Shown: in pieces, positions 2,173-27,178 of the stretch
How positions within the stretch are numbered: position 1 is the stretch's first letter
How the letters are laid out: every line of letters begins with the position of its first letter
From: an uncultured archaeon
Lineage (GTDB): Archaea; Thermoplasmatota; Thermoplasmata; Thermoplasmatales; Thermoplasmataceae
Reading direction: 5' to 3'
NCBI GenBank assembly: GCA_000965745.1
Contig: CP009479.1
Coordinates: 608,001 to 672,000 of the forward strand
Length of the DNA: 64,000 bases
Notes under the pieces: model-generated
Databases searched by the model: none
Told to the model about the DNA's origin: nothing
The model's input: the letters and a program-made list of their open reading frames with translations, nothing else
Program-made: the position numbers and the translations under genes

Positions 2173-2205
2173 AAAACCCCCTAAGTTCATAAAACTCAAA
2201 CTTGG

Positions 2206-2928: not shown

Positions 2929-3009
2929 TTCCTGTACCCAAAACGAATCTGTCTTTTCACTTAAACCTTCATTTCACGTTTCTTTGGTAGCATAAGCATC
3001 TTGGTTTCC

Positions 3010-3695: not shown

Positions 3696-3858
3696 TTCCA
3701 CGGGAAAGAGAGAGAGTCGCCGAACGCGTCAGCGTTCTTCTTATATAATATATACCTGATACAATGAACATTACATATTAAAAAAATGGAATTTTCCCTA
3801 ATTTTTAAAGCTTGAAACGAACAGAGAACTGGCCACTCGTTTTCTGACACTCTCTCTC
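3696..3858. other. Candidate Orc1/Cdc6-dependent replication origin
   Basis: ORB-like TTCCACGGGAAAGAGAGAGAG (3696-3716). Inverted repeat GAGAGAGAGT (3708-3717) / ACTCTCTCTC (3849-3858) flanks an AT-rich core directly upstream of cdc6. Confidence 0.45.
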
Positions 3859-3955
3859 AAAAGTCAATAACGACTGTTCTGCCACACTCAATGATTCGAC
3901 TCGTTCGTTACTTTTAATAATCTTACCAGTGAAGCATGATTGTGCAGGTGATCCA

Positions 3956-5041: not shown

Positions 5042-5042
5042 A

Positions 5043-8717: not shown

Positions 8718-8718
8718 A

Positions 8719-10355: not shown

Positions 10356-10364
10356 GGTGATGTT

Positions 10365-13300
10365 ATGGCGCTGCACAAAGAGATAATAGACAACAGTGAT
10401 GGCAATAAACTGGTCAGCTTCTTAAATGACGCACTGAAAGAAAATGGCAAAGGCAACTTTGACATTGCAACCGCTTTTTTTAACATAGGTGGTTTTGCCA
10501 TGATCAAGGATAGCCTTGACCAATCAGTAAAATTTAGACTCTTATTGGGCAAGGCACCAGAGATCCAGAACGATACAACCTTAGGAGATGTCTTACTTGA
10601 GGAGATAAAGAAAGAAGTGGAGGGATTTGACCTTTCAAAGGACTCCGATACAACTGTAAGGCTTTTTATCGAGTTCCTGAAACGAGACAACGTACAAGTG
10701 AGACTTTTTGAGAAATTTCTTCATGGAAAGGCCTATATTTTCGATGATCGGATAGTCATAGGCTCTTCCAATTTCACCGGTGCTGGACTTACTAGATATG
10801 GTGAGCTGAACACCTGGAGGCAGGAATCCCAGGCCATCTACGCCAGAAAAGAATGGTTTGACAAGTTTTGGGCTGAATCGATAGATTTCAAGAAGGATTT
10901 GATAGAGCTCCTCGAAAACTCAAGATTTGGCAGTAAAGAGTATTCCCCCTATGAAATTTACATAAAAACACTCTATGAAATGCAGAAAGAAGACATAAAG
11001 GAGGGACAAAAGGAAGAAAAGCCAAGTGGGATGCCTGAGACTAAAGTAAATTTAGCACAATTCCAAGAAGACGCCATAGCCAGAATATGGACCAGGATGA
11101 AGAAATATGGTGGATGCATAGTAGCGGACTCAGTAGGATTAGGTAAAACGTGGATCGCAAAGAAGGTCCTAGAGCAAATAGGTTACTATGAACGGAAAAA
11201 CATACTGGTTGTCTGCCCGGCTCAGCTTCGAGAGATGTGGAGAGGTGAGCTCAAGAAAATAGATACTAAAGAGAACATACTTTCACAGGAAGACCTTGCA
11301 TCGGAAAACTACCTAGAGAAAGCAAAAAGAACTCTTGGCGGACGCCTGGATAACGTAGAGTTAATTGTTGTCGACGAAAGCCATAACTTCAGGAATCCTT
11401 TGTCAAATAGATGGGAGAACTTTTTCTCTCTCGTGAACGATAACGTTTCAAGTTCGGGTAACAAGCCCTATATTTTGTTTCTTACAGCAACCCCAATCAA
11501 TAACACTCCTTGGGACCTTTATTGGCAAATTATGCTTCTCGTATTGATGGATAGATCCGCCTTTATCAAAGAGAACATACCAGATCTGTTCAAATACTTC
11601 AGAGAGGCCAAAGACAACCCTTCGCTGCTAAATGACCTCTTAAATGAGATATCTATCCGAAGAACCAGGGACTATATCATTGAAAACTATCCTGACGCAT
11701 ATATAGTCGTCGAGATGCCCAATGGTGAGTCTGAAGAGCGCAAGATTACATTCCCTAAACGAGTTCTTGAAAATGTCAATTACAAACTGGACACCGCGTA
11801 CAAGGGAATGTACAAGGAAATATCAGACACGCTTACCGAAAAACTTACCATGGCATATTACCGTATACTGGAATATAGGAAAGAAGGCGTCAAGACAGAG
11901 GAAGAGAGACTGGCTCTGGGAAGAATGATTGCTATAGGCGGCATCTTTAGGACGATATTGCTAAAGAGGTTGGAAAGCAGCGTAGATTCATTCAGAAAAA
12001 GTATATCCAACCACATTCAATTTCTTGAAAAGTTGAAACTCTACCTCAAAGTTGGAAAACTGCTGACCAAAGAGAGTTACATAAAGTACATGCTCAGGTC
12101 TTACGACGAATTGGAAGACGGAGATATAAGGGAGATTCTTGATGATTTCAAACTCGCTGAATATCGTATTGACGACCTGTTCCATGACATTGATATTGAT
12201 ATAGACTTGCTAAACAACATTTTGGGGAAGGTTAAGAAAATAAAACCTGCTGATGATTCAAAACTCAACGTACTAAAGGAAAAGCTCCTTGAGCTATCCA
12301 AAGATAAAGATGGACAGATTGTTCTTTTTACATATTATGCAGACACCCTCAACTACATTTATGAAGAAATTGCCAACGATAAACGGTTCTCAAAACTCAA
12401 AATAGAGGCCATATCTAGCTCTGGAACAACAAGCAAGAGCCCTGTTCAGCGCGAAGAGATAATTAAGAGATTTTTTGAGAAGAATGTCGACATCATACTC
12501 AGTACAGACGTTCTTTCTGAGGGCCAGAATCTTCAGACAGCAAAGTACCTGATCAATTACGACCTGCACTGGAACCCCACGAGAATGATACAAAGGGCAG
12601 GTAGGATTGACAGAATTGGCTCTCCATACATGGAGATATATGTTTACAATTTCTTCCCGGAAGATGAACTTGAAGAGCTCCTTAAGTTGGTGCAAGCTCT
12701 GCAAAGCAAGATTATCGATATAGATGATTCCGTGGGCCTCGATCAGACAGTTCTAGGGGAGGAGATACATCCAAAGGTTTTTGGCATAATTAGACGCATT
12801 AGAGGAAAGGATGAAAGACTGTTCACGGAATTAGAAGCAGACCTATTCGGTGGAGGAGAGCTTTTTTACCAACCCCTGAAAGATTTCCTGAAGGACAAGG
12901 GCGTAGAGGAGCTAGAAAAGATTCCATTCGGCGTATTTAGTGGGCTAAAGAAGGAAAGAATTTCTGGCATATTCTTCTACTACGAGTATGAGAACGACTT
13001 TCATTTCTGGTATTTGTATGATATCAAGACGGGTAGCACTCTGACAAGTAAGACTGACATTTTGGACTATATAAAATGCAAGAGGGATGAAGAACGCGAG
13101 ATTCCGTCTTTCTTTGAGAAGGTCTACGATACAAACAAGCTTATCCTGGAGGAGATTGAAAGAACATACAAAGAGATAGAGCTTAGCAACACGCAGGATT
13201 CACAGCTAAAGGAACTCAATAGGTCTAACAGTACTAAATTTATCAAGAAAATGATAGATGAAATTGAGATACAGTTAACTGAATACCTGTATGAGTATCC

Positions 13301-13547
13301 CAATGATACTTCAGTTGAGCATGTATGGGAACAGATCAAGTCAAAATTACTCTCCCTGCCACCCACAAAGAAAAGGCTTCAGGCCCTCAGACAAATATGG
13401 AAATCCTACAAGAAGGACAACGACTGGAAGAAGATGGTAGAAGAATTGGGCAACTTCATGACTGAAAAGGGCATTTTCAAGAAGACAGAGATAGAGCCAT
13501 TCGACGCTTCCAGGCTCAGATTGGTGACCATGGACTTCATCTCATAA
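10365..13547 (+). CDS. PLD nuclease-SNF2 helicase fusion
   Basis: HGKAYIFD...GSSNFT (HKD), ADSVGLGKT, VDESH, LTATP, SEGQNLQ, QRAGRIDR. Confidence 0.9.
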   Translation: MALHKEIIDNSDGNKLVSFLNDALKENGKGNFDIATAFFNIGGFAMIKDSLDQSVKFRLLLGKAPEIQNDTTLGDVLLEEIKKEVEGFDLSKDSDTTVRLFIEFLKRDNVQVRLFEKFLHGKAYIFDDRIVIGSSNFTGAGLTRYGELNTWRQESQAIYARKEWFDKFWAESIDFKKDLIELLENSRFGSKEYSPYEIYIKTLYEMQKEDIKEGQKEEKPSGMPETKVNLAQFQEDAIARIWTRMKKYGGCIVADSVGLGKTWIAKKVLEQIGYYERKNILVVCPAQLREMWRGELKKIDTKENILSQEDLASENYLEKAKRTLGGRLDNVELIVVDESHNFRNPLSNRWENFFSLVNDNVSSSGNKPYILFLTATPINNTPWDLYWQIMLLVLMDRSAFIKENIPDLFKYFREAKDNPSLLNDLLNEISIRRTRDYIIENYPDAYIVVEMPNGESEERKITFPKRVLENVNYKLDTAYKGMYKEISDTLTEKLTMAYYRILEYRKEGVKTEEERLALGRMIAIGGIFRTILLKRLESSVDSFRKSISNHIQFLEKLKLYLKVGKLLTKESYIKYMLRSYDELEDGDIREILDDFKLAEYRIDDLFHDIDIDIDLLNNILGKVKKIKPADDSKLNVLKEKLLELSKDKDGQIVLFTYYADTLNYIYEEIANDKRFSKLKIEAISSSGTTSKSPVQREEIIKRFFEKNVDIILSTDVLSEGQNLQTAKYLINYDLHWNPTRMIQRAGRIDRIGSPYMEIYVYNFFPEDELEELLKLVQALQSKIIDIDDSVGLDQTVLGEEIHPKVFGIIRRIRGKDERLFTELEADLFGGGELFYQPLKDFLKDKGVEELEKIPFGVFSGLKKERISGIFFYYEYENDFHFWYLYDIKTGSTLTSKTDILDYIKCKRDEEREIPSFFEKVYDTNKLILEEIERTYKEIELSNTQDSQLKELNRSNSTKFIKKMIDEIEIQLTEYLYEYPNDTSVEHVWEQIKSKLLSLPPTKKRLQALRQIWKSYKKDNDWKKMVEELGNFMTEKGIFKKTEIEPFDASRLRLVTMDFIS

Positions 13548-13582
13548 CTGCTTAATGCCGACGATCGTGTGAGGGTCCAATT

Positions 13583-13744
13583 CTATTGGCCCTTTGGGAT
13601 AGTATAGGTTTTATGCTCGCTCACATAGACATTAAAGTTGTTCCCGCACGATGAGCATTTATAGCGAGAAACCTCGAATACATTGAAAGACCATTTCTTC
13701 TTTGGAGAACTGTTATTTTCTTTTTCACACACCGGACACTTCAT
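13583..13744 (-). CDS. Small Zn-ribbon protein
   Basis: MKCPVC...YKCSSCG. Likely start is the ATG at 13744. Confidence 0.6.
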   Translation of the reverse strand: MKCPVCEKENNSSPKKKWSFNVFEVSRYKCSSCGNNFNVYVSEHKTYTIPKGQ

Positions 13745-13833
13745 TATTACGCTAGCTACCTTCACAACTAAAATCTTTCGATCTCGCAAACTGAGTCAAT
13801 TCAGGCTCATTGATATCCTCAATAATAGCTAAA

Positions 13834-14007
13834 TTAGAGTTCTTTTAAAAATTCCCTTGCTTTCCTGATCCTACCATTGTTGATGTCAGCCTCACTTCGC
13901 TCTAGCTGTTCCATCACATACTCATTGCTTAAGGTCTGAATAGTGGCCGCAAGGCCATTCAACCGGGATTTAGCTATGTTACCAAGCCTGAATCTGGGTG
14001 TTGCCAT
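13834..14007 (-). CDS. 57-aa orphan antitoxin-like peptide (not in ORF track)
   Basis: Manual translation MATPRFRLGNIAKSRLNGLAATIQTLSNEYVMEQLERSEADINNGRIRKAREFLKEL. The C-terminal half resembles archaeal RelB/Phd antitoxin tails. Confidence 0.5.
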   Translation of the reverse strand: MATPRFRLGNIAKSRLNGLAATIQTLSNEYVMEQLERSEADINNGRIRKAREFLKEL

Positions 14008-14056
14008 TACAATTCTTATATGATTTTAGATTTAAATCGTTTTTCGTGCTCAGTCT

Positions 14057-14460
14057 CAAATTCACCCCTATCCCCTCTTTTAGCCTTCGCCCATTACCAT
14101 GTGCCCTTCGCTCGCCTTCACGCCGAGCACAGGACCCCATGCTTCAACTCCAATCAAAATTCACCCCCTATCCCCTCTTTTGATTTCCGTCTCGCACTCT
14201 TCTTTGAAGAGCCCCTCATTCGCCTTGCTCATTCAGGGTAGTGTCCTGTGCTCGCCGCTCGTGGTGTATGTGTGGTGTTACACACCTTCGCTTCGCTTGG
14301 TGTTCCACACCACCCACCGCTAACGCTTACACCACTCGGTCTTGCTACGCAAGACTTCCGGCTCGCTTCGGGCACATTAGTCTCTCCTGCAGAGTGCAAT
14401 TTGAGGGGGACAGGGGAGGGGGATTTTAGACCGCACAATCTCGCTGCGCTCAGTGCGGGA
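14057..14460. repeat. Structured non-coding region with direct and inverted repeats and twin hairpins
   Basis: CAAA(A)TTCACCCC(C)TATCCCCTCTTTT at 14057-14081 and 14155-14181, an inverted relative at 14398-14427, GGTGTtacACACC and GGTGTtccACACC hairpins, and recurrent CGCTTCGCT-like motifs. Confidence 0.6.
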
Positions 14461-14518
14461 TAAAGACAGATACCAAATCAAAAAGAAGGTTTTTTAAGGA
14501 CTCATATGATTAAAGTTT

Positions 14519-14740
14519 ATGTATCCCCAAAGTGTAAAAGATGCTGTCAAGAAAATGCCACTAAACCGGAAAATCGATCTTGCTAATGCATTGCTCGACG
14601 CAGTGTTGAAGAAGAGAATCCAGGAGAAGGGAGAAGAACTAAGGAGCAGATTGGATATTCTTGAAAAAGAGCTTAATGAGAGATTCAACAAACAACTTGA
14701 CGACATGTTGGAGTCGTTGTTAGACAATCTGTCTGAATGA
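14519..14740 (+). CDS. Small helical/coiled-coil hypothetical protein
   Basis: ORF with charged helical composition. Confidence 0.6.
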   Translation: MYPQSVKDAVKKMPLNRKIDLANALLDAVLKKRIQEKGEELRSRLDILEKELNERFNKQLDDMLESLLDNLSE

Positions 14741-14811
14741 ATCAAGACTACAAACCAGACCCGATTTCGGGTTAACGAAAGTGATTTAAGCTCTCAAAGG
14801 GTAGCTTCTTT

Positions 14812-15450
14812 ATGGAGATTTTCCTGAGTCATTCAAGAAAAGACCTGAATCTCGTTAATACCGTGAAGAAGGCTCTTGGGCTCTTGGATTATCACACCAT
14901 CGTCTACGAAGATTTACCTGAAAACCTGAGACCAGGGAAAGACTTAGACAATATTAGAAATCTCATAAGTCAAAGTCAATTGGTTTTTTTGTTCTTGACA
15001 AGTAATGTAATTTCTTTAAAACACACCCTGACCTGGGTTCAGTATGAGGACCACGTTGCATCAATGTCTAACAAACCGGTGATAGTGTTCCAAGAACAAC
15101 TCCCTGTTTCAACAACCAGCTTTCCAATTTTGTACTTTACAGATGTAATTTCTTGGGTGGGGCCCTCAGCAGATCCTATGAAAATACAGGAAATTGCCAA
15201 ATCATTTAGATCGTCTGGAGCAGTGGTTAGAGCGGTAGCTGGAGGGGCTATCGGAGCAATTTTTGGGCCAATAGGTGCTCTACTTGGGGCACTAGTTGGT
15301 TTGGCGTCAACTCCTCAAAACCCATTGCAAAACATACCAACAGTCAAGTGCCCAAATTGCAAATATACGTTCAGGTATTGGGGCAATGAAAATACCTTGT
15401 TTTACTGTCCAAATTGCCTTAAAGAATGGTTATACAAAGGTAGGAGTTAA
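14812..15450 (+). CDS. TIR domain + glycine-zipper TM segment + Zn ribbon
   Basis: IFLSHSRKD start, WVQYE with conserved Glu, KPVIVF; GGAIGAIFGPIGALLGALVG; CPNC...CPNC. Confidence 0.8.
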   Translation: MEIFLSHSRKDLNLVNTVKKALGLLDYHTIVYEDLPENLRPGKDLDNIRNLISQSQLVFLFLTSNVISLKHTLTWVQYEDHVASMSNKPVIVFQEQLPVSTTSFPILYFTDVISWVGPSADPMKIQEIAKSFRSSGAVVRAVAGGAIGAIFGPIGALLGALVGLASTPQNPLQNIPTVKCPNCKYTFRYWGNENTLFYCPNCLKEWLYKGRS

Positions 15451-15451
15451 C

Positions 15452-15754
15452 ATGGTTGTTAGGGAATCTGTGGAAATAAAGGCACCGCCAGAGGAAGTTT
15501 ACAGTTTCTTGGCCAGCCTGAGCCTTAATGGATTGAAAGTATCACGTAAGATTCCGGAGATGAAAACTGTCATTATTTCTTCAGGATTATCACTATTCTC
15601 TTGGGGAGAAAGTATAGAGGCATCAGTTCAGTCGAGTCAAGCCGGATCGCTTGTTATATTAAGAGCCCAAGGGAAATCCCAACTAAACATTACTGCAGAT
15701 CCTAAAGCATTGTCTCAGAGAGTGAAAGATGCTTTGAAAGGGAGATTTGGCTAA
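15452..15754 (+). CDS. Small SRPBCC/START-like hypothetical protein
   Basis: ATG 1 nt after the TIR stop; ESVEIKAPPEEVYSFL and SLFSWGESIE motifs. Confidence 0.6.
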   Translation: MVVRESVEIKAPPEEVYSFLASLSLNGLKVSRKIPEMKTVIISSGLSLFSWGESIEASVQSSQAGSLVILRAQGKSQLNITADPKALSQRVKDALKGRFG

Positions 15755-15767
15755 GGTTAGTTTTTGG

Positions 15768-15805
15768 TATTCGCTTAAAACTTTAATCAAATCCCGACCG
15801 GTCCA
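15768..15805 (+). repeat. att-like 38-bp site, copy 1 (19-bp arm + tRNA-Ala 3' fragment)
   Basis: TATTCGCTTAAAACTTTAATCAAATCCCGACCGGTCCA. The last 19 nt read as T-loop remnant, T-stem, acceptor CCGGTCC and discriminator A. Confidence 0.85.
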
Positions 15806-15828
15806 CTAGTTTTTATTCATTGAGTTTT

Positions 15829-15903
15829 TATCACTGATAGATATTTAAGATATCTCTGTTAACGGATAATTATCAGTGATACATTAATAAAGTATCACTG
15901 AAT
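15829..15903. promoter_or_regulatory. TATCAnTGATA operator palindromes upstream of the type IV TA
   Basis: TATCACTGATA 15829-15839, TATCAGTGATA 15871-15881, TATCACTGAAT 15893-15903. Confidence 0.65.
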
Positions 15904-15915
15904 ACAGATACAAAA

Positions 15916-16947
15916 ATGGATGAAGATCTAGAACCAATTTATCAGTTTATACTTGAGAAACTCCGTATTTCACCTGATGCAAAAATAGACAGGTCGTATC
16001 CGATATCTATTGGAGAAAGAGAATTACTGATAGACTTAGCAATTAAGTCCAGAGGCACTTTGACGCTTGTTGAAATTAAGTCTAGAATAAATGAAGACAC
16101 TATATACAGAATATATGCTCTTTCGCACTTAATAAGCAAACAGTTGATGGGTAAGAAAGAGATAAGATTGGTTTGTGCTGGAAAATCACTGAAGTACAGC
16201 ACCCAGGAACTTGCCGCCAGGCTTGGTGTAGAAACCCTGCTCATCCCTCCAATATTGTATCAGTACTTGTCACCTATGGTAACTGCATCTAAGGTGAATG
16301 CTCCTTTCGAACACTTAAGAGCTAGTCCGTCAAAAATTACTTCCGAAAAGGCATGGAAAATTGTCTGTTCCCTACTGACTGATAAATCATCCAACATCCT
16401 TGCTATTTCTAAGAAAACCGGTGTTTCATATGGCTGGACAAACACTGTAATTCATAAACTTGAAGAATCTGGGATAGTAACGGTCAATTACAGCTTTAGA
16501 ATCAAAGACATAGATAAGCTTTTGAATTTGGTCTCGTGGGAAAGAGCCCTTGACGACCTGCTCTTGGAGACTGTAAACACAAATTTCAGCACTGCAACCC
16601 AGTGTATAAATGAAGTCGCGTTGAATCTAAACAGGCTCGGAATAGATTATGCTTTCACGGCCCATTCGTCTGCCGTTTCATATGGTTCTTCTATAATGAA
16701 GGAAGATACAGCATATATCTACCTCCCGAACCCATCCGACAAAGAAGTTATTAGGTCCTTTTCTGAAAGAGAAGCAGTTGGAATTCGCCTGAAGGTATAC
16801 GTACCCGAAAGAGATATCATGAAATCTTCCACCATGTTTAATGGCGTTCGGATTGTTGACGTGTGCCAGAACATACTGGACCTTGCAGGATTAGGTATGG
16901 ATGGACGGATTGCCGCAAAGGATCTGGTGAATAAGTGTGGTAAATGA
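15916..16947 (+). CDS. AbiEi-like antitoxin with N-terminal PD-(D/E)XK-like domain and wHTH
   Basis: IDLAIK...VEIKSR; ILAISKKTGVSYGWTNTVIHKLEESG wHTH; C-terminal QNILDLAGLG..GRIAA. Confidence 0.65.
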   Translation: MDEDLEPIYQFILEKLRISPDAKIDRSYPISIGERELLIDLAIKSRGTLTLVEIKSRINEDTIYRIYALSHLISKQLMGKKEIRLVCAGKSLKYSTQELAARLGVETLLIPPILYQYLSPMVTASKVNAPFEHLRASPSKITSEKAWKIVCSLLTDKSSNILAISKKTGVSYGWTNTVIHKLEESGIVTVNYSFRIKDIDKLLNLVSWERALDDLLLETVNTNFSTATQCINEVALNLNRLGIDYAFTAHSSAVSYGSSIMKEDTAYIYLPNPSDKEVIRSFSEREAVGIRLKVYVPERDIMKSSTMFNGVRIVDVCQNILDLAGLGMDGRIAAKDLVNKCGK

Positions 16948-17683
16948 AGAAGGTGGAGAGACCACTTTGGCCCGGGATTCATTCGAAGAGCTCAGGTACA
17001 TTTTCGACTGGAGCTCCGCTAACAGAAATTATAGGCCAGGTGATATCGTTCTCATAGGCGGATGGGCAGTCCACTCATTTAATCCTTGGAAATATTCACT
17101 CGATATCGATTTGATCGCAACTGGTCGTTTCAAGGATTCATTAAAAAGACATCTATACTCGACCCGGGATTACAGTAGAGAAAGGGATTCTGCAGGAAAT
17201 ACCTTGTTTCTAAAAAGTATAGACTCTGGAGATATTTATCTTGACTTTCTACCGAAAAAAGATCAATTCCACGGAACGGGCAAATTTCTCAATTTGATGA
17301 AAATAGAATACGAGACTGTTCCCAAAAATATTTCCCATTCCATTGAGCCTGAGTTCCAAGTCATAGTCCCAGAGATCTCAATGCTCCTCTTGCTAAAGTT
17401 AAAAGCGGCATGGGACAGATACTATGATTTATCGCTTGAAACTGCTCTGGACAAGGATCATTTGAACGAGAAGTTTACCAAGGATTGTGGCGACATCATT
17501 GCTTTACTTCAGAGTGATGCATTTCAGTTCGCCAGATTTGATTGGCTGTCTTCAATCATATCCAGATTTGATTTCTTGCGGACTTTCCTGGGGCAGGGAA
17601 TTATAGCGGATAATTCGGCTTTTGACCGTATTTCTCATAAGGAAGGCAAAGCGCTAATCAAAAGGTTATTGTCTCTTATTTGA
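16937..17683 (+). CDS. AbiEii-like nucleotidyltransferase
   Basis: VLIGGWAV...YSLDIDL NTase motif, LLLKLKAAWDR, KDCGDIIAL. Overlaps the upstream gene. Confidence 0.75.
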   Translation: MVNEEGGETTLARDSFEELRYIFDWSSANRNYRPGDIVLIGGWAVHSFNPWKYSLDIDLIATGRFKDSLKRHLYSTRDYSRERDSAGNTLFLKSIDSGDIYLDFLPKKDQFHGTGKFLNLMKIEYETVPKNISHSIEPEFQVIVPEISMLLLLKLKAAWDRYYDLSLETALDKDHLNEKFTKDCGDIIALLQSDAFQFARFDWLSSIISRFDFLRTFLGQGIIADNSAFDRISHKEGKALIKRLLSLI

Positions 17684-17732
17684 TGAAACTCTAAATGGAA
17701 TGGTTGCAAGAGTTATCATAGAGACCTAAAAG

Positions 17733-17770
17733 TATTCGCTTAAAACATTAAACAAATCCCGACCGGTCCA
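17733..17770 (+). repeat. att-like 38-bp site, copy 2
   Basis: TATTCGCTTAAAACATTAAACAAATCCCGACCGGTCCA (2 mismatches to copy 1). Confidence 0.85.
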
Positions 17771-18260
17771 TTTCATGTGCATAATTAGTATGCTTGTGAT
17801 AAATAGGATTATCATGGAGGTTAAGGGTCTTCAGTTTCCTTGTTTGTTTCATTTTGTCCAGCCTTTCTAACAGAATTGCGCGTCTCCCTGGTCCACAGGT
17901 AAACAAGTACGAACACAGTTATTGAGGGCACTATTAAGCCAATAATCCCTGTTTAATTGATCATAATTCAGGTCGAATTCATGCCCGCATTTTTGGCACT
18001 TCAAATGATGCTCCTAGCCCATGCTAATTCCTCTGGTGGATCATATGAAATAAGAATATATATCTCAACAGAAGATCCATAGGCTCCCTACACCATTTTA
18101 AGATTATTCTCCTTTCTATGGGGTACTGACCTCTTCAAGGTACCATCGGGTTTATGCCATGGAAATAGACCGTTATCTTGAGGATTCAGCAATTTTGGAG
18201 TGGGGTGAGCATAAGCTTCTATATAAAAAAACTTTATACTATCGTTTACCATAGATAACT

Positions 18261-18482
18261 GTGACAATTACAACAATACAGATAAAGGAAGAGACCAAGA
18301 AGACATTGCAGTCCATGAAATTACATCCAAGAGAGACTTACGAGGAAGTGATAGAAAGGATGCTGGAGGACCTTCGCGAACTTAATGAAGAAACCATAGC
18401 AGATATCGAGGAAGCTAGAAAGGAAATTGAATCCGGTAAATTCGTCACGCATGAGCAATTGAAAAAGGACCTTGGCCTCTGA
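18261..18482 (+). CDS. Antitoxin (archaeal RelB-like)
   Basis: TTIQIKEETKKTL...ETYEEVIERML...EIESGKFVTHEQLKKDLGL; coupled to relE. Confidence 0.85.
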   Translation: MTITTIQIKEETKKTLQSMKLHPRETYEEVIERMLEDLRELNEETIADIEEARKEIESGKFVTHEQLKKDLGL

Positions 18483-18736
18483 TGGAATACGAAATAATCT
18501 GGTCAATCAAGGCAGCAGGTCAGATGAGAAGTCTTGATAGGTCCGTTGCCAAAAGAATTCATGAAAAAGTGGACCAGCTTTATCAAAACCCGGAAAGATT
18601 TGTTGAGAAACTCGTCAGGTATCCTTATTACAGGCTTAGGGTGGGAGATTATCGTGTGATTCTTGACATCAAACATGAATCTGTTAGAATATTGATCCTA
18701 AAGGTAGGACCCAGAAGTAAAATATACGAGCGATAG
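18482..18736 (+). CDS. relE: RelE/StbE family toxin
   Basis: YRLRVGDYRVI...ILKVGPRSKIY. Confidence 0.9.
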   Translation: MEYEIIWSIKAAGQMRSLDRSVAKRIHEKVDQLYQNPERFVEKLVRYPYYRLRVGDYRVILDIKHESVRILILKVGPRSKIYER

Positions 18737-18750
18737 TAGAATCAGAATGG

Positions 18751-18788
18751 TATTCCCTTAAAACATTAATCAAATCCTGACCGGTCCA
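18751..18788 (+). repeat. att-like 38-bp site, copy 3
   Basis: TATTCCCTTAAAACATTAATCAAATCCTGACCGGTCCA (3 mismatches to copy 1). Confidence 0.85.
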
Positions 18789-18889
18789 TAATCCTATGAG
18801 CCCGAGTCTCAAGCATATGTTGACATAAATCCACAGATTAAGTTGAAAAGATTTAAAATATCCTCTTTTTCTAATCCCACTAGAGTTGG

Positions 18890-19360
18890 ATGGACCATCT
18901 GAATAAGATTATAGAGGAAGCTTGGAATCAACGGGACACCCCTGAAGTGTTTCTAAAGAAATTCCAGGAAGTATTCGAAGATTACAGCGAAAATGCTGTG
19001 TACTTGTTCGAATATGCAAGTGCTTTGGATTTCCTGGGGAAGGAGACTGAGGCAATTCCTCTATATCAAAGGGCCATAAAGATAGGGCTTTCAGGAAAAA
19101 TGAAAACTCAGGCTGAAATACAGTTGGGAAGTTCACTCAGTGTCACGGGCGAAAATGAAAGTGCCATATCTATCCTGAGCAGAGTACAGAAGGAAACGGG
19201 GGATCCTGCCGCCCTGTCATTCCTGTGCATTGCTCTGATCAGATCTGGAGAAACTAAGAAGTCGCTCAAGACTGCTCTCAATTTTATTCTGTCAAGCAAT
19301 CAGGGTCTATTGCCTGAATATGAGAGACCCCTTTCACAGTACCTTGATGAAATCGGTTGA
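18890..19360 (+). CDS. Tetratricopeptide repeat protein
   Basis: FEYASALDFLGKETEAIPLYQRAI, IQLGSSLSVTG. Confidence 0.8.
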   Translation: MDHLNKIIEEAWNQRDTPEVFLKKFQEVFEDYSENAVYLFEYASALDFLGKETEAIPLYQRAIKIGLSGKMKTQAEIQLGSSLSVTGENESAISILSRVQKETGDPAALSFLCIALIRSGETKKSLKTALNFILSSNQGLLPEYERPLSQYLDEIG

Positions 19361-19447
19361 TTTCTGATTCCGTCCGCCCATTCTGGCATATTGTAGCCAT
19401 TCATTTAGAGAAGTGCCAACAAATGACTTGTAAGACCGACGCAAAAA

Positions 19448-20350
19448 TCATCCTCTACCCTTTACTTCGCGATAAAGGTTTATGGATGCCGGGCTTGTTT
19501 TCCACATTTTGTTCAAGCGTATTCCTGGAAGTTCTCCCTGTTTAATTCTCAGTGCCAGGTATTTCGACGAGTAATCTGTACCGGAGGCTTCTCTTGCCTC
19601 TTTCAGGGTCAATAGGTTATCCTCTTCGGAACCCACCTTGTCGAGAACAAAGACAAGTGATCTTGCCATATTTGTTTCCAGAAACTCTGTTAATTTGCTC
19701 ACACCTTTACCATGAGCAGCCTCAAGCGCATCCAGATAAGAACCTCTGTCGTTAGGGAGAATGTGAATCAACGGCCAGTTGTGATTGAGGAAGTGTATAT
19801 TCAGCAGCAGTCTTCCGACTCTTCCATTTCCATCTGAAAAGGGATGGATTGACTCGAAACCGATGTGCATCTCTGCAGCCTGTGCGAAGATATCTTCACG
19901 CCCCATATCCATTGCCGCATAGTGCTTTTCCCATTCCCGAAGCAGTGAAATGAGCTTTTCAACTCTTGGGGGTGAATATCTTGAACCTGATATTCTGACA
20001 TTGACTTTCCTCCACTGACCTGCGTCAATAAGTATCCCATAAAAAATATGTCGGTGCAAATCCAATGCACTTTTCATGCTAACTTCACATATTCTTCCAC
20101 TTACAATTTCTGCCAAAGCGGATCGATGCTGGATAGTTTCAAGCAGATCTCTCACTGGGCGATCAGGAATAGTCATTCCACTTTCAATTACTCTGGTCAC
20201 TTCATCCAGGGTTAGAGTGTTACCCTCTATGGCATTAGTTCCCCAGGTATTGAGTATGAACGATTCTTGAAGGGTCTTCTCTGGCATATTGCGTAATGAG
20301 CCTCGATCCAACATCCTTTCCCTGAGTCTATTTAGTATGTGTCTATCCAT
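19448..20350 (-). CDS. Fic family protein with C-terminal HTH
   Basis: TNAIEGNTLT, HPFSDGNGRVGR. Likely start is the ATG at 20350. Confidence 0.9.
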   Translation of the reverse strand: MDRHILNRLRERMLDRGSLRNMPEKTLQESFILNTWGTNAIEGNTLTLDEVTRVIESGMTIPDRPVRDLLETIQHRSALAEIVSGRICEVSMKSALDLHRHIFYGILIDAGQWRKVNVRISGSRYSPPRVEKLISLLREWEKHYAAMDMGREDIFAQAAEMHIGFESIHPFSDGNGRVGRLLLNIHFLNHNWPLIHILPNDRGSYLDALEAAHGKGVSKLTEFLETNMARSLVFVLDKVGSEEDNLLTLKEAREASGTDYSSKYLALRIKQGELPGIRLNKMWKTSPASINLYREVKGRG

Positions 20351-20437
20351 TATCGATACAAATATACATATTAGATATTTAAACATATATGGAAAACTCA
20401 AATAATCTTATTAACTCCATATTAACCATCATTTTAA

Positions 20438-20707
20438 CAAAATTGAGCGGGAAATCCCCTTCCGAAAGGGAGGGAATGAAAGTGAACCTATCTGTATCAC
20501 AAACAGATGTAATTCCTGTTCGCTGGCAGACAGAAGTGAAAGTGGTCGGATAGCATATTGCTCCATGCATGCCTGCGTCCGTAAAGTCAGGTGGCTGAGC
20601 ATGGAGGACATAGTACCTTCGGGCCAAGGGGAATTCAAGCCTGTGGAGATTCCGCCAGCAACCTTTGAAGCAGGAAGCTCCCTGTGAAAGCTGGGAGAGG
20701 AGGTCAC
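20438..20707 (+). mobile_element. Non-autonomous IS200/IS605-derived mini-element, copy 1 (diverged)
   Basis: Preceded by TTTAA. LE CAAAATTGAGCG + hairpin; RE GAAGCAGGAAGCTCCC...GGGAGAGGAGGTCAC. Homologous to the copies at 50822 and 55592. Confidence 0.8.
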
Positions 20708-20720
20708 ATAGTTTCAAAGC

Positions 20721-21227
20721 TCAATCCAATGAAATCCTTTCCATCTCGTTTCCATTTACTGTTAGAAGCCCCTTAACCTCACAGGCTTTCGACAGTGTGT
20801 TGGTAACATAGCAGTCGGAGGCAGAAACTGATGCCAATTCCCTGATTTTCTCGACGTTTTCAGGCGATCTGATGTCAACGAAATATACTATCTCAGAGAA
20901 AGATCTTGGCCTGCTTACGCTGAATTTTCCCTCAACCCCTATGGTGAGGTGATCGATTACCAGATCTTTGGAGCCCGCGTGTTCTCCGTAGTGTATCATC
21001 TGGCACATGGCAAGGCTTGATACAAAATAAGCGAGAGGACTGGGCCCATTTTCATCTGATACCCAGGAAAATTCCTGATTGCCAGGACTGGCTCTGGAAA
21101 ATAGATTGTTACCCTTGCTCACTGTGACACTGACATTTGAAAAAACATCTCCTTTCTTATCAAATTTTGAGAATTTTTCCATCCTTTCCTTCATTCTCTG
21201 TTTGAAGTCTCCGTCAAACTGTACCAT
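20721..21227 (-). CDS. OsmC-like protein
   Basis: GPSPLAYFVSSLAMC...DCYVTNTL. Confidence 0.8.
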   Translation of the reverse strand: MVQFDGDFKQRMKERMEKFSKFDKKGDVFSNVSVTVSKGNNLFSRASPGNQEFSWVSDENGPSPLAYFVSSLAMCQMIHYGEHAGSKDLVIDHLTIGVEGKFSVSRPRSFSEIVYFVDIRSPENVEKIRELASVSASDCYVTNTLSKACEVKGLLTVNGNEMERISLD

Positions 21228-21296
21228 GCCACTGAAATTTGGATTGGTTCTTAATTCCTCACCGTCAACCGTTGACGCAAGCCGGCCTTTTTGGTC

Positions 21297-21983
21297 TCAA
21301 ACAGTAACAATCCTGCCAAGGGCTGTTATCTCTACTTCCATTCTTCCCCTGGCCTTTCTGTTTACGGACACAAGCCCAAGATCGATGAGACCCTGAGAAT
21401 CGTCAGTGCCATTCATGTGCCTGCTGATAAGGGATTTTTCAAGCCCCGTTAATTCCGAGAGCTGCTCAAGGCTATCCACCTTGCCTTTCATCCTTGACAG
21501 TGCACTTAATATAGAAAGCTTGGTCTCAGACAATATCTTCTGGTATCCCAGCTTCATGATGGGCAGCATATGCACACCCGATTGATCCACCCAGAAAGCT
21601 CTTATGCCAAAAATAAAAGCAGAGGAAATGGCGGTGCACGACAGGAGTTTCCCTCCTTCGGTAACATTCATGAAAATGTCCTCATACTCCTGGCTATGCT
21701 CCTTATACACTGATTTTACGGCGTCGAGGACCTCATTGAGTTCCCCCGATTCTATCATCACCTCATCAACCTGGGCCATAAGGGCTCCTGAGACCTGCTC
21801 CATAAAACCATTGAACGGAACGTCATTCACGGGGATGCTTTTCCCATGGACCCGTTCGTGAATTATTACAATCTTGTCCAGAGGAAGATGCCTTATTCCG
21901 GATCTTATCCCTGTATAAGACTGCCCGTCTGTATATATGGCGATCTGAAGGGTCTTTTTCTGTAAGCCGGCCTCATCTGCCAT
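21297..21983 (-). CDS. CARF + wHTH transcriptional regulator (Csa3/DUF6293-like)
   Basis: N-terminal Rossmann-like fold, FMNVTEGGKLLS motif, C-terminal SLEQLSELTGLEKSLISRH...LIDLGLV...ITALG. Confidence 0.7.
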   Translation of the reverse strand: MADEAGLQKKTLQIAIYTDGQSYTGIRSGIRHLPLDKIVIIHERVHGKSIPVNDVPFNGFMEQVSGALMAQVDEVMIESGELNEVLDAVKSVYKEHSQEYEDIFMNVTEGGKLLSCTAISSAFIFGIRAFWVDQSGVHMLPIMKLGYQKILSETKLSILSALSRMKGKVDSLEQLSELTGLEKSLISRHMNGTDDSQGLIDLGLVSVNRKARGRMEVEITALGRIVTV

Positions 21984-22223
21984 GGTTCTTAGGAAGCAAT
22001 CAGTGTTTATAGACATGTGTTCGCATCAAGGGAGGTAATACTAACTTTCCCCAGCAACCGTTGGTGGGTAATTTATTCTATCTTAGGTATGCATATCCAG
22101 CGTGTATTGACAAGAGAAGTCTTCCGGCTTAACACTTATTTTGAATCCCGTTACGACTTCATATTAGCAACCGTTGACGGAATTGGCTTATATATACTTC
22201 CAAAATCTGAAAATCAGATAAAA

Positions 22224-22820
22224 ATGACAGAAAACAGATGTGATGTGTGCGGTATGTCCTTTGGCTCGAAAGAGAGCCTGATGGAACATGCAAAAATGCA
22301 CATGGGATCGGGAAATACAAGAACGGGACCAGGGAAGCTGACAACAAGGGGTGTAATAACCTCATCCGTGGTTGGAGGAATTCTTGGTGGAATAGTAATG
22401 CTCATAGTCCTAATGGTTGGTGCAATGGGAATGGGGCTTTCGGCCACAACTTTTGCAATGGTTATGGGCATGGGCCTTGGCGCTTCAATGGGAGCGGCGA
22501 CGGCTGTTGGAGTAGTCAGCCATTTTGTTGTTGCAATAGTGGCAGGAGGCATATTTGGGGCAATCGTTTCATTTGTGAAACCTCTTGGCCTTAAAACAGC
22601 AGGTAGAGCACCTATTCTGGGTTTAGTGTTTGGCATAGTAATGTTCCTGGTGTTCTTCCTTCCAATGGCGATGGCGGTATTTGCACCTGTAATGATGCAC
22701 CTGATGGATCCAAAGGCTGCAATGATGCTACCAGATGTACTGGTGACAGGATTCATAGGTCACATCCTGTTCGGTCTCGTACTTGGAACAGTGGCATTTT
22801 ACTTTGGAAGAAAATTTTAA
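22224..22820 (+). CDS. C2H2 Zn finger + Met/Gly-rich multi-pass membrane protein
   Basis: CDVCGMSFGSKESLMEHAKMH, then about four hydrophobic helices with intramembrane His. Likely start is the ATG at 22224. Confidence 0.75.
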   Translation: MTENRCDVCGMSFGSKESLMEHAKMHMGSGNTRTGPGKLTTRGVITSSVVGGILGGIVMLIVLMVGAMGMGLSATTFAMVMGMGLGASMGAATAVGVVSHFVVAIVAGGIFGAIVSFVKPLGLKTAGRAPILGLVFGIVMFLVFFLPMAMAVFAPVMMHLMDPKAAMMLPDVLVTGFIGHILFGLVLGTVAFYFGRKF

Positions 22821-22863
22821 ATTATCAAACATAATTTTTTAATATTTAAAATAAAGATCATGA

Positions 22864-24225
22864 GTGATTGAAATGACAGCAAAATACGACTTAATAATCA
22901 TAGGATCAGGATCAGCTTCCACTACCACAGCGTTCAGGGCACTGAAAGCAGGAAAGAAAATTGCAGTGATAGACCAGAAGCCAATCGGAGGAACATGCGC
23001 CCTCAGGGGATGTGATCCCAAAAAGGTCATGGTAGGTGTTACCGATTCCCTGGAGCATGCAAAACGACTCCAGGGATACGGCATATCTGATTTTAAGGGA
23101 GAACTCAACTGGGACGAGCTCATGAAGTTCAAGAGCTCCTTTACCGAGCCAATGTCCAAGAAAATAGAGGAAAGCCTCGTTAAAAGTGGTATTGATGTGC
23201 ACAGAGGGAGGGCGAAATTTATCAAGCCTGATACGCTCGAAGTTGAAGGAAAACCACTGGAAGCCGAAAAATTCCTGATATCCTCAGGAGTGAAGGCAGC
23301 AACTCTCAATTTTCCTGGTTCAGAGTACCTGATAGATAATGAGGAGTTTCTGAACCTTCCCTCACTGCCGAAGAACCTGGTGTTCATCGGCGGGGGATAC
23401 ATTTCGGTTGAATTCGCCAGTATAGCAAGAAAAGCTGGCTCGGAGGCAACTATAATACAGCACTCAGACAGGATACTGGTCAACTTTGACAAAGAAGTTG
23501 CTGAAGTCCTTTCCAAGCAGTTGAAAGATTCGGGTATAAGGACTCTGACAAGCAGCTCAGTGAAGGAGATACAGAAGTCAGGGGGCAAATATGAAATACG
23601 CCTTGCAAAGGACGGAAAGGAGCATTCCATTACAGCAGATCTTGTTGTTCATGGTGCGGGCAGAGAATTTGATTCAGACATGGGACTTGAAGTTGGACAG
23701 GTGAAATGGTCCAGAAAAGGAGTGGCAGTAAATGAATATCTCCAGAGTGTGTCGAATCCCAGGGTTTATGCTGCTGGAGATTCCGCTGATACTTCAGGAC
23801 CAAAGCTGACACCGATTGCGGTTATGGAAGGCAACATAGCAGCAGAGAACATCATAAACGGAAATTCCGTGAAGGCAAATTACACAGGGATTCCTACGTC
23901 CGTCTTCTCCTCTCCGCCATTGGCAATGGTTGGAATCACTGAGGAGGGTGCTTCCAGGAAAGGTATTAAGACAACTGTGAAAAAAGGGGAGATGACATCC
24001 TGGTATAATTCCAGGAGGAGAATGGTGCCAAGTTCATTCTATAAGATCATCATGAATGAGGACTCCAGCAAAATTCTGGGTGCACACATTCTTGGTGAAA
24101 ATTCAGAGGAAACCATTAATATCTTCGCCCTTGCAATAAGGCTTGGCATCGATGTGAAAACACTACTCTCGATACCTTACACCTATCCATCGGATACGAA
24201 CGACATTAGATACATGATCGGGTAA
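22864..24225 (+). CDS. Pyridine nucleotide-disulfide oxidoreductase (glutathione reductase-like)
   Basis: GSGSAS, GGTCALRGCDPKK, GGGYI, YAAGD. Confidence 0.9.
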   Translation: MIEMTAKYDLIIIGSGSASTTTAFRALKAGKKIAVIDQKPIGGTCALRGCDPKKVMVGVTDSLEHAKRLQGYGISDFKGELNWDELMKFKSSFTEPMSKKIEESLVKSGIDVHRGRAKFIKPDTLEVEGKPLEAEKFLISSGVKAATLNFPGSEYLIDNEEFLNLPSLPKNLVFIGGGYISVEFASIARKAGSEATIIQHSDRILVNFDKEVAEVLSKQLKDSGIRTLTSSSVKEIQKSGGKYEIRLAKDGKEHSITADLVVHGAGREFDSDMGLEVGQVKWSRKGVAVNEYLQSVSNPRVYAAGDSADTSGPKLTPIAVMEGNIAAENIINGNSVKANYTGIPTSVFSSPPLAMVGITEEGASRKGIKTTVKKGEMTSWYNSRRRMVPSSFYKIIMNEDSSKILGAHILGENSEETINIFALAIRLGIDVKTLLSIPYTYPSDTNDIRYMIG

Positions 24226-24292
24226 ATCCTGCATTCAATATCTATTGCCGAACAACTCCATTTTTTTTGTATTGCGGGAAGTGTGTATTTGA

Positions 24293-24330
24293 TAATAGAT
24301 TAAAATTTTGATCAAATCCCGACCGCCTCT
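24293..24330 (+). repeat. att-like site, copy 4 (degenerate)
   Basis: TAATAGATTAAAATTTTGATCAAATCCCGACCGCCTCT aligns ungapped to copy 1; ATCAAATCCCGACCG is intact. Confidence 0.7.
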
Positions 24331-24339
24331 GAATGTGAT

Positions 24340-24660
24340 TTATTGCAAAGGGGGAAAACCGTACGGGTGTGATTCTCCGTCAGGATATGAAGCGCCCAGT
24401 TTTCTGAAAGCGCCCATTCTGGCTGGAAGTCTGCCCGGATGGCCAAACTGGCACCAGCCGACCATGTCTTTGCTATCGTACACTAGTGCAGAGTGCGGAG
24501 CTTTCCATCCTTGACAAGCTTCTTCTCATACTCCCTGGTGTTTTGGGCAGCCTGTTCATAAATCCCTGGTTTTCGGTGGAAGGAAACACACCAGCAACCA
24601 CCCCAAATCCCGTTGTGCTTTTTCGTGGTTCTGGCCAAATCAGGCCACCATTAATGAGTG
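24340..24660 (-). pseudogene. GNAT acetyltransferase pseudogene
   Basis: Fragments KHNGIWGGCWCVSFH...EKKLVKDG and ALVYDSKDMVGWCQFG lie in different frames. Ends approximate. Confidence 0.6.
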
Positions 24661-24734
24661 AGAACAACTAATTTGCCTTTTCCAAACTAAGGCTCTGAGT
24701 TTGGAATTATATGAAATCTCAACTACAATTGAGG

Positions 24735-25718
24735 TTAAGTTAGCCTAAGATCTACTCCCATCTTCCTCGATAGGTTCGGGAGATCCTGCACAACATAGAA
24801 GAAAGCCATCCAGGACCATTCACCCCATCGTCTCATTCCCTCAGCTTTTACCTTTTCAACCGCCTCCCTGTTGTTCTCCGGCTTCTTACCGAAAAACAGC
24901 TTGCCAAAAACCTCAGCCGACCAGACATCTATGGGGAACCCCCCATGCGGGCTGATTATGTCTGCGGAGTAATCCCCTATTCCCGGCAACCCGATAAGTG
25001 CCTTCCTGGCCTCCCCGGGACTCATTTCCGCGAGTTGCTGCATCGATGGGAATTTCTCCTCTGAAAGCTTTTTTGCAAGTTTTACTATGTGCTTTGCCCT
25101 ATACCCGACTTTGCATTTTCTTGCTAGCTCGCTCTCTTCGATTGAGGAAATTCTTTCCGGAACTGGCCATGCAGAAACCTGTCTGTCATCGAATTCGGCT
25201 GCCTCGCCATAGTTTTGAATGAAAGAAGCCATCATCTCATTGCTTCTCTTAAGAGGGGCCATCTGAAGAAGTATAGCAAGCACAGCCTCAGGGAAAACAG
25301 ATGGTGGAATTCCGTCATGCATTCCATAAAGGTCGTCCACCGCATGCTTCAGTATGTCGTCCTTCCTTGCCATTTCATAAAATCCGCTAAGGTCCTGCTC
25401 TGCCCCCAGGGCTTCCTTGATAACATCAATAAGGAATTTCGTATGAGATATAGCCAGTTCTTCAATGGAAAATACCTGCACACTCACCACCGGGTTGCTG
25501 ATATTTCCCTCCGACCACATTTTAACCCCAATCAGGGTGGAAGAAACCTTGGTGGCTGACCACAGTGTACCGTTCTCGAATATTTCGAAGGGCGTAAAGA
25601 ATGACCATCCTGCAGGATTCTTTACTGTAAGGCTGAAATCAAAAGGTGCTGTCGGTTTCAGTGAGAACTCAAAAATGTGGGAAAGAGGCGTCACAACTAA
25701 GGAGATGTTGTACTCCAT
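24735..25718 (-). CDS. HhH-GPD superfamily DNA glycosylase (AlkA/Ogg-like)
   Basis: KVGYRAKHI, LIGLPGIGDYSADII, FPIDVW. Confidence 0.85.
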   Translation of the reverse strand: MEYNISLVVTPLSHIFEFSLKPTAPFDFSLTVKNPAGWSFFTPFEIFENGTLWSATKVSSTLIGVKMWSEGNISNPVVSVQVFSIEELAISHTKFLIDVIKEALGAEQDLSGFYEMARKDDILKHAVDDLYGMHDGIPPSVFPEAVLAILLQMAPLKRSNEMMASFIQNYGEAAEFDDRQVSAWPVPERISSIEESELARKCKVGYRAKHIVKLAKKLSEEKFPSMQQLAEMSPGEARKALIGLPGIGDYSADIISPHGGFPIDVWSAEVFGKLFFGKKPENNREAVEKVKAEGMRRWGEWSWMAFFYVVQDLPNLSRKMGVDLRLT

Positions 25719-25795
25719 TGTATTGTTTTTGCTACTCCGCTTGAATGTGCCTGTTCATCGTGCTTGATGGTTCGGGCCATTTCTACCATACTGTC

Positions 25796-26201
25796 TTATT
25801 GCTCCTGGGACATCAGCATCCACCTGATTCCGTAACGATCATCCAGCATAGCGTAGAATCCGCCCCAAAACGGTTTCTCTACAGGCGTTATCACTTCCCT
25901 CCCTCTGAAAGGGTTTCTAAAAGGTTCCTCATTGTTTTCTCATCTTCATACTCGTTACTGATAGAGATCACACTGCAAGACCAAGCTTGTAAGAGGCGAA
26001 TGTATCCATTGCAAACAGCTCAAGATCACCGTTTTTCAGGCTTGAATGTATTATATTCTTCATATCAGGCGGTACCTCTTCCTCCATCGGCGACCCACCT
26101 GCCATCATTGTGTTAAGTACTCCCCCAAAGCAGTTTTTTTAGAAGTCCATGGCCTCTTCGCATGTGCCGCCAAAAGTCAGATGTGGAACTAATTCCTTCA
26201 T
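25796..26201 (-). pseudogene. VOC/PhnB-like pseudogene
   Basis: MKELVPHLTFGGTCEEAMDF*KNCFGG...IIHSSL...PFWGGFYAMLDDRYGIRWML, with an in-frame stop and frameshifts. Confidence 0.7.
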
Positions 26202-26299
26202 ATAAAACCAAGTTCAATTCGTACATATAGTATATTTTAACAGTAATTCTCATCAGTGAAAGTTGAGTTTTATAGCCACCCGGTCCATGATTTTTATGC

Positions 26300-27178
26300 A
26301 TGAGAAAATTTTCAGTTTCGAGTGGTTCACGCAAATTAAATGCCCTGGAAACCGGTGCTTCCAGAGGAATCCCTGTTTTCTTTCTTCATCCGGCTCCAGG
26401 CTCAAGAGTCATGTATAAACCCCAGGTTGATAACGCAAATAATACCGGTGTAAGGCTTATCAGTTACAGCAGGCCTGGTTATGGAGGTTCGGAAAGGGAG
26501 GAGGGGAGAAATATTTCAGGCGCGGCAGAGGATGTTCTGGCAATAGCGGACGATCTTGGCATTGAGAGGTTTGGTGTCATAGGATATGCAGAAGGAGCGC
26601 CGCACGCACTCTCCTGCGCTGCCAGAGAACCTGAACGTGTAGTTGCAATTTCAGCAATTTCGGGATACGCCCCCTTCAATGCTGAAGGCTTTGATTTCTT
26701 TGCAGGAATGGGTGATTATGCCACAAAGGATTTCAATATGCTTCTAAATAAAGATCAGAAATGGGAGGAGAGCAATCTCCAGGCAGTTGAGACGCTCAGG
26801 CAATCCACAAGGGATCGGTTGGTGCAACTCATAGGTTCCATGTATTCGGAGGCGGATGCCAAGGCTGTTTCAGATGATCTCGTAGATTTTATGATCGACA
26901 GCGTCCTAGATGGCTGCTCTGAAGGTATAGACGGTGTCAGGGAGGATAGGCTGGCCCTTACCAGGCTATGGGGTTTTGATGTGGGTTCAATCAGGGTCCC
27001 CACACAAATATGGCATGGAGAACAGGATACAGTTGTTCCAATACAGCACAGCCAATGGCTGGCCTCAGAAATTCCAGGCGCCGAAGTCCACCTAGAAGGA
27101 GATGAGGGGCACCTGTCAACATTTGTCAACAACATTAATGATGTCCAGCAATGGATAAGATCAGAGTTTGAAAAATAG
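26300..27178 (+). CDS. Alpha/beta hydrolase fold protein (nucleophile Ser replaced by Ala)
   Basis: HPAPGSR, SRPGYGGS, GYAEGAPHAL, WHGEQDTVVP, EGHLS. Confidence 0.85.
   Translation: MRKFSVSSGSRKLNALETGASRGIPVFFLHPAPGSRVMYKPQVDNANNTGVRLISYSRPGYGGSEREEGRNISGAAEDVLAIADDLGIERFGVIGYAEGAPHALSCAAREPERVVAISAISGYAPFNAEGFDFFAGMGDYATKDFNMLLNKDQKWEESNLQAVETLRQSTRDRLVQLIGSMYSEADAKAVSDDLVDFMIDSVLDGCSEGIDGVREDRLALTRLWGFDVGSIRVPTQIWHGEQDTVVPIQHSQWLASEIPGAEVHLEGDEGHLSTFVNNINDVQQWIRSEFEK

Follow-up and report, generated by a model that had tools for sequence, protein, structure and literature searches.

How do small gene cassettes without an integrase of their own come to stand in tandem behind a tRNA gene, and which enzyme moves them? 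The question is raised by a 64,000-nucleotide stretch from an uncultured member of the Thermoplasmataceae (assembly GCA_000965745.1, contig CP009479.1, positions 608,001 to 672,000; the whole stretch is called the window below), in which copies of a repeat ending like a tRNA-Ala gene delimit such cassettes. The initial annotation, made from the sequence alone, read them as an integron-like array supplied by an integrase acting in trans. We find instead that the first copy closes an integrative element with its own tyrosine integrase, and we propose that elements of this family shuttle cassettes among genera of the order Thermoplasmatales. The arrays are integron-like in look; their chemistry seems to be that of ordinary tRNA integration.

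The repeat site and the integrative element

Three close copies of the repeat, at 15768, 17733 and 18751 (none in 100 shuffles), and a degenerate fourth at 24293 were recovered as first described. The distances from the upstream stop codon to the site (13, 49, 14 and 67 bp) and the module sizes proved correct on re-measurement, with 1965, 1018 and 5542 bp between successive sites. The site itself, announced as 38 bp long, is real but covers 39 bp, with an additional G on the left, and its copies occupy 15767-15805, 17732-17770, 18750-18788 and 24292-24330 on the forward strand. It is an attR-type site composed of a 20-bp element arm, P (15767-15786 in site 1), and a 19-nt core (15787-15805) that is identical to the 3' end of both tRNA-Ala(TGC) and tRNA-Ala(CGC). 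Each of these two genes, located with ARAGORN, carries G3:U70, which bears out the predicted tRNA-Ala origin. Sites 2 and 3 likewise consist of arm and core, and in site 4 the agreement of the core ends at position 34 of 39. Profile scores of the four sites are 69.9, 64.9, 65.8 and 22.0, and in the rest of the closed 2.23-Mb genome a profile scan gave scores of at least 14 only for three copies at the second tRNA-Ala locus. The 3' flank, described as not conserved, is mostly so, apart from a weak preference in its first four bases (T 83%, T 71%, C 43%, T 64%). An Rfam scan of the window from 13500 to 26500 returned zero matches.

The tRNA-Ala(TGC) gene lies at C1:602393-602464, 5.5 kb left of the window. 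It is followed by P', the reverse complement of the first 20 bp of the site, and then by a 429-amino-acid open reading frame (ORF), which is the integrase predicted left of the window. P and P' form an inverted repeat, symmetric around the core centre. The tRNA gene with P' constitutes attL and copy 1 constitutes attR of a 21.3-kb integrative, plasmid-like element, whose right 15.8 kb fill positions 1-15805 (forward strand) and whose left end (tRNA gene, P' arm, integrase and an ATPase) lies outside the window at C1:602393-607145. The duplicated tRNA 3' end on its flanks and an integrase with the R-K-(H/Y)xxR-H-Y set adjoining the att site place it among the tRNA-targeting integrative elements, and its backbone is common to 10 other elements. 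Copy 1 closes an integrase-bearing element, and the integrase here lies in cis; action in trans is not supported, recent transfers being element-linked or multi-cassette blocks.

Residues R152, K196, Y270-x-x-R273, H300 and Y308 of the integrase are invariant in 13 homologues. Many homologues carry PF00589, and the labels among them are Cuniculiplasma, Ferroplasma and Acidiplasma. The AlphaFold model of the enzyme is poor (pLDDT 53), a search of the PDB gave only a non-significant match to XerA, and PLSDB held no match.

Cassettes across the order and their possible routes

Searched in 169 genomes from 37 genera of the order, with the reversed site as control, the site was present in 80 genomes and 22 genera, with up to 13 copies per genome; the control gave none. 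The 80 fetched regions were cut into 174 site-to-site modules, among which 14 start with P' and 160 lack it (median 1.7 kb). None of these 160 encodes this integrase, seven hold other backbone parts and one an unrelated archaeal phage integrase. The cassette units mostly measure 0.7-3.5 kb, and an array contains about 11 of them at most. RelBE, VapBC/PIN or AbiEii-like genes occur in 87 of the 152 modules of at most 5 kb.

Sixty-seven modules group into 23 cassette families of nearly fixed length, such as K2 (1963-1967 bp in six genera) and K3 (710-711 bp in four). In 14 other genomes the first base of K2 comes immediately behind the core, five times directly behind a full tRNA-Ala. Among 268 distinct cassette-start contexts, the core stands directly upstream in 247 and a decayed site in most others. 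The predicted variation of content and order between genomes was also borne out: of 74 cross-genus pairs in which the two flanks are known, 71 have different neighbours on both sides. This comparison indicates that the cassettes are discrete, shared and reshuffled among many related genera, and their fixed ends together with changing neighbours largely refute simple immobile decay as the whole account.

That alternative, in which the modules are immobile stumps, each left by a large element of its own, can nevertheless draw on an 8.0-kb module of genome G013 with 84% identity to the final 7.9 kb of an element in G032, on the backbone parts in seven modules, and on RelBE modules that share their right end but not their left. 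It would not yield base-exact left boundaries in many genera, strip P' and integrase cleanly from all 160 modules, or leave the core directly upstream of so many cassette starts, and we regard it as very improbable. Stumps partly account for the origin of modules, some of which are element right ends or start at internal pseudo-sites, but leave fixed ends and shuffled order unaccounted for.

Entry beside the tRNA gene, as originally suggested, is supported by 19 full tRNA-Ala genes that lead straight into a cassette start, next to 12 that lead into an element or P', in a search-selected sample that leaves out four tRNA halves starting at the anticodon loop. Arrays without the element are present in other genomes, and the closed genomes G130 and G151 carry cassettes behind tRNA-Ala and lack a close integrase, the best match reaching E 1e-138 and 74% identity. 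Of the proposed age gradient a weak trend persists, with site quality declining along 17 of 23 arrays, but no more than that can be read from arrays that are not independent (Wilcoxon P=0.026). A hidden P' arm at the cassette starts was considered and rejected (P=0.33 versus control, no trace beyond two bases).

On balance we think that plasmid-like elements of 15-25 kb serve as the cassette shuttle at tRNA-Ala(TGC) and tRNA-Ala(CGC). These elements form a Thermoplasmatales family and insert at the 3' end of the two tRNA genes through their tyrosine integrase, as site anatomy, integrase and backbone show; their attP consists of P, core and P', and the crossover probably lies near the core centre. 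Any DNA can come after the core, which makes each cassette end, consisting of P and core, usable as attR. In lambda-type att logic, attL is able to recombine with any attR-type site downstream, so that an element could depart by itself or together with the first n cassettes. Having inserted ahead of a resident array, it would sometimes excise at a distal site, take the first cassettes to a new host and there excise at its own attR, the cassettes staying behind the tRNA. Repeated rounds would stack and reorder cassettes across genera, which would account for cassettes directly behind tRNA genes, for closed-genome arrays without a close integrase and for any order. From known toxin-antitoxin biology, the toxin-antitoxin genes probably guard the cassettes against loss.

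Further evidence agrees with such a shuttle. Rare variants shared at site positions 21-28 mostly track the upstream cassette (13 against three), and those at positions 29 and 36 the downstream cassette, which argues for a crossover near the core centre; the all-pairs test being saturated, a high-identity subset was used for this mapping. Furthermore, cross-genus matches of at least 95% consist of an element with a cassette, blocks of two to three cassettes, or element right ends. In three genera, cassette K20 is joined to the element via one and the same decayed site (a 13.3-kb match at 97%), and the closed genomes G013 and G027 have K20 in common at 97.7%. This recent sharing fits pick-up and drop-off by the elements.

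A crossover by the integrase at a short GGTCCA-T pseudo-site in the cargo, with deletion of all DNA leftward, would create a new left boundary. A 1533-bp cassette of G001 starts mid-frame in an arginase gene, at the codons G-T-G-P-Y and at a GGTCCA-T motif matching the last bases of the core; a longer form exists in three other arrays, and in a contig of G145 a module begins at the same arginase point behind a tRNA end. The motif occurs about once per 10 kb per strand and could therefore explain some 100 different cassette starts. Stumps, be they element right ends or pseudo-site starts, are thus one source of cassettes, which then circulate.

Several observations weigh against the shuttle. 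Excision, transfer and pseudo-site use are deduced from sequence, and the arginase start is the only clear birth at a pseudo-site, a second candidate (K8 inside K21) being ambiguous. Old cassettes are too shuffled to separate pick-up from free circles, and the set of recent transfers is small and partly made of metagenome-assembled genome bins, possibly mis-binned. A duplicated cassette in G013 disagrees with the mapped crossover on its right side, and no relaxase was recognised among the ORFs scanned.

The same duplication speaks for the trans system of the initial annotation, in which single cassettes leave as circles of P and core and enter the tRNA gene singly via an integrase from elsewhere. 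A 763-bp VapBC cassette is duplicated unchanged in an 11-module array of G013 (L055-L056, C1:895001-930000) that lacks an element, while an element resides at the other tRNA-Ala. Ahead of the second copy stands a decayed piece of tRNA in which the core has the same two mutations. The almost completely shuffled neighbours and the cassettes lying between tRNA gene and integrase remnant in G027 would also suit free circles, and such circles might form by standard chemistry where a cassette lies between tRNA and element, with re-entry at attL. However, cassette starts do not carry P', so that excision between two sites would have one arm type; recent cross-genus transfers are not single cassettes that have new neighbours on both sides; and cassettes bring no transfer genes of their own, apart from the backbone parts in seven of the 160 modules. 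We consider this route unlikely, though it and the shuttle are not mutually exclusive. Equally doubtful is its wider form, an independent archaeal route to integron-like capture in which the integrase would make cassettes at 6-7-bp pseudo-sites and move them as free circles within an order-wide pool.

The addition of free cassettes one by one gained no support from searches for excised circles. No circle or excision junction was found in Logan contigs of four runs, which end at the repeat, and the joints listed there are short or contain foreign letters and derive from other copies. IMG/VR held no site, and in one attP-like metagenome contig circle and tandem are indistinguishable. Near-identical contigs from two runs of one study have depths of about 46 and 24 over the element and about 150-160 and 67-85 over the cassettes and the flanking DNA; in a third run, contigs are lacking to the left of site 1. 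The pattern fits element loss leaving the cassettes, with the reservation that depth gives no share of cells and is not counted as evidence.

Finally, homologous or microhomology recombination between arrays, through the 39-bp sites and shared cassettes, might do the shuffling while the integrase only seeds sites. The G013 duplicate could be a gene conversion, and many decayed sites still flank shuffled cassettes. Yet the P arm, unneeded for such exchange, is conserved in sites across the order, cassettes stand directly behind tRNA genes that share just 19 bp with the site, and sites nearer the tRNA tend to be more intact. We hold this explanation to be improbable.

Gene content of the window and other tRNA-Ala loci

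Three modules of about 1.9, 1.0 and 5.5 kb had been described behind site 1; their sizes and their lack of an integrase stand, but the 5.5-kb module is composite. Cassette K2 (15806-17770, forward strand, 1965 bp), with the same ends in other genera, closes in site 2 and encodes a 343-amino-acid HTH-bearing protein (15916-16947) and a 248-amino-acid nucleotidyltransferase (16937-17683). The label AbiEii-like is a lead only for the latter, which was unmatched in Pfam, NCBIfam and PADLOC; the pair is probably a type IV toxin-antitoxin system. The 1018-bp RelBE cassette (17771-18788, forward) carries an antitoxin (18261-18482) and a RelE/ParE toxin (18482-18736). In 13 of 24 related loci its right end keeps a constant position relative to the site, and its left part varies.

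The third module is made of a TPR/Fic cassette, K14, and an older OsmC/CARF-like/redox block. K14 (18789-20430, forward), whose left boundary is the same in five other loci, encodes a TPR protein (18890-19360, forward) and a Fic protein (19448-20401, reverse). Its right site, found 140-190 bp further right in relatives, is lost in the window, where a decayed arm and a 278-bp IS605-type remnant take its place. This remnant (20430-20707) is a multi-copy, internally deleted IS200/IS605-type (TnpB) element, the left end of which has counterparts about 1.4 kb ahead of two TnpB domains. The same non-autonomous repeat recurs in the window at 50815-51092 and 55585-55862, and about 10 long copies exist genome-wide. 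The old module (20708-24330) encodes OsmC (20721-21227, reverse), a CARF-like HTH protein (21297-22016, reverse), a zinc-finger membrane protein (22017-22820, forward) and a pyridine nucleotide-disulphide oxidoreductase (22864-24225, forward), and ends in site 4, at the place of which one relative (L200) also has a weak site. Past it lies an HhH-GPD glycosylase (24735-25718, reverse). The array probably continues beyond site 4, since in other genomes homologues of this glycosylase occur within cassette arrays or next to them.

Within the window the element encodes ParA (1135-1890), an HNH protein (2206-2928), a resolvase (3090-3695), a Cdc6-like AAA protein labelled from sequence features and AAA matches only (3929-5041), a type IIG-like restriction-modification protein (5043-8717), an HTH-M78/DUF4411 pair (8719-10355), a PLD-SNF2 helicase (10365-13547) and a TIR protein (14812-15450); a small membrane protein is also encoded on it. 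The cargo at 5043-13547, with the type IIG-like protein, the HTH-M78 peptidase with DUF4411 and the helicase, resembles a defence locus. At the right end (14812-15754), the TIR-domain protein has a C-terminal zinc ribbon (weak ThsB-like match) and is accompanied by a small protein of no assigned family. The 592-amino-acid ATPase matches a conjugal-transfer ATPase model at E 8e-9, far below the cut-off. Comparison of elements further delimits a conserved non-coding region (13830-14463) that contains a 17-bp direct repeat, its copies 100 bp apart, together with nested inverted repeats. Kept in nearly all elements and in five integrase-less modules, it is a possible origin of replication or transfer.

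The tRNA-Ala(CGC) gene, at 390292-390363, shows the same layout of tRNA, P' and integrase ORF. The second element of the family there (C1:390292-410633; L002, L003) measures 17.5 kb, its integrase is 95% identical, and behind it follow a 711-bp VapBC cassette and a 2042-bp ATPase/antitoxin module. A third integrase (C1:1502414-1503709), 40% identical, is closely preceded by 15 bp that match the 3' end of tRNA-Ala(GGC); it lies about 8.7 kb from that gene (1511165-1511236), with no P-type cassette sites nearby. In other genomes, 3' halves of tRNA-Ala beginning at the anticodon loop stand inside arrays L047 (G018:C11), L085 (G138:C77), L067 (G010:C18), L055 and L069, some with a conserved stretch in front. 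Together with one PF16795 match among the module proteins, these halves point to a second, SSV1-type integrase family on the same tRNA.

Relation to known systems

By the integron criteria of Ghaly 2022 (10.1101/2022.02.06.479319), which cover archaeal integrons, the array is not an integron. The best NCBIfam match of the integrase is archaeal XerA (38 bits), and a TIGR02249 search of the genome listed nothing above cut-off and did not list this integrase, the IntI additional domain not having been aligned directly. Three sites share no attC hairpin (z +0.6 to -2.3), the sequence itself being what is conserved, and ORFs are not co-oriented, as 55% of 482 (some spurious) lie on the array strand and whole families on the opposite one. 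Membership of the integrons fails on these defining features. Integrons do resemble the arrays in their small, discrete, shuffled, site-closed and toxin-antitoxin-rich cassettes, and integrase-less integron arrays exist (10.1101/2022.02.06.479319). Here, however, the site is of the double-strand type, with a fixed sequence taken from a tRNA, the integrase belongs to a mobile element, and genes, which have upstream regions of their own, occupy both strands.

The closest known cases are accretion and cis-mobilization of cis-mobilizable elements (CIMEs) and the ssrA islands of Dehalococcoides. According to a review (PMC5704250, citing Pavlovic 2004 and Bellanger 2011), CIMEs accrete with integrative and conjugative or integrative and mobilizable elements as integrase-less units lined up in tandem where a target gene ends, are excised and transferred with a neighbouring element, and capture genes. 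The cassettes likewise lack integration and transfer genes (none of 160 with this integrase, seven with other backbone parts), and their element-linked transfer pattern fits co-excision and transfer of the CIME type. Described CIMEs are decayed elements in short tandems, with both attL and attR retained. Unlike them, the present units keep the right site without P' or any left arm, stand in arrays that reach about 11 units and circulate throughout many genera within one archaeal order.

In Dehalococcoides (McMurdie 2011, PMC3146451), the 3' ends of the target RNA are also repeated, each with a conserved upstream motif, and islands stand in tandem with and without the integration module (15 without), for which cis-mobilization was proposed. 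Those islands depend on the serine recombinase DsiB and a tmRNA, are large and carry rdhA, and belong to one genus, with no within-strain duplicates reported; the present system has a tyrosine integrase, tRNA-Ala and small cassettes rich in toxin-antitoxin genes. The additive islands of Alteromonas (PMC4898812) and the tycheposon islands of Prochlorococcus (10.1101/2020.12.28.424599) are comparable in their tRNA-anchored cassettes with partial tRNA repeats, near-identical across species and newest beside the tRNA. The repeat is kept by some of their cassettes only, no conserved arm at each junction is described in the parts consulted, and tycheposons, unlike the cassettes here, carry their own integrase.

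Papers on Thermoplasmatales islands (PMC5155288, PMC12302457) mention tRNAs, integrases and toxin-antitoxin genes and, in the parts searched, not the site or the cassette structure. In the literature searched on Thermoplasmatales and archaeal tRNA cassette arrays, with most subscription journals outside its coverage, tRNA-site accretion with such unusually small, discrete and order-wide shared cassettes is apparently undescribed. The proposed shuttle would offer a concrete mechanism behind the pool of accessory genes, among them those for toxin-antitoxin systems, restriction, metals and redox functions, common to Thermoplasmatales genera, and it would exemplify how an ordinary tRNA integrase may build integron-like arrays. 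With the 39-bp site as a guide, cassette genes of unknown function can also be mined in a simple way.

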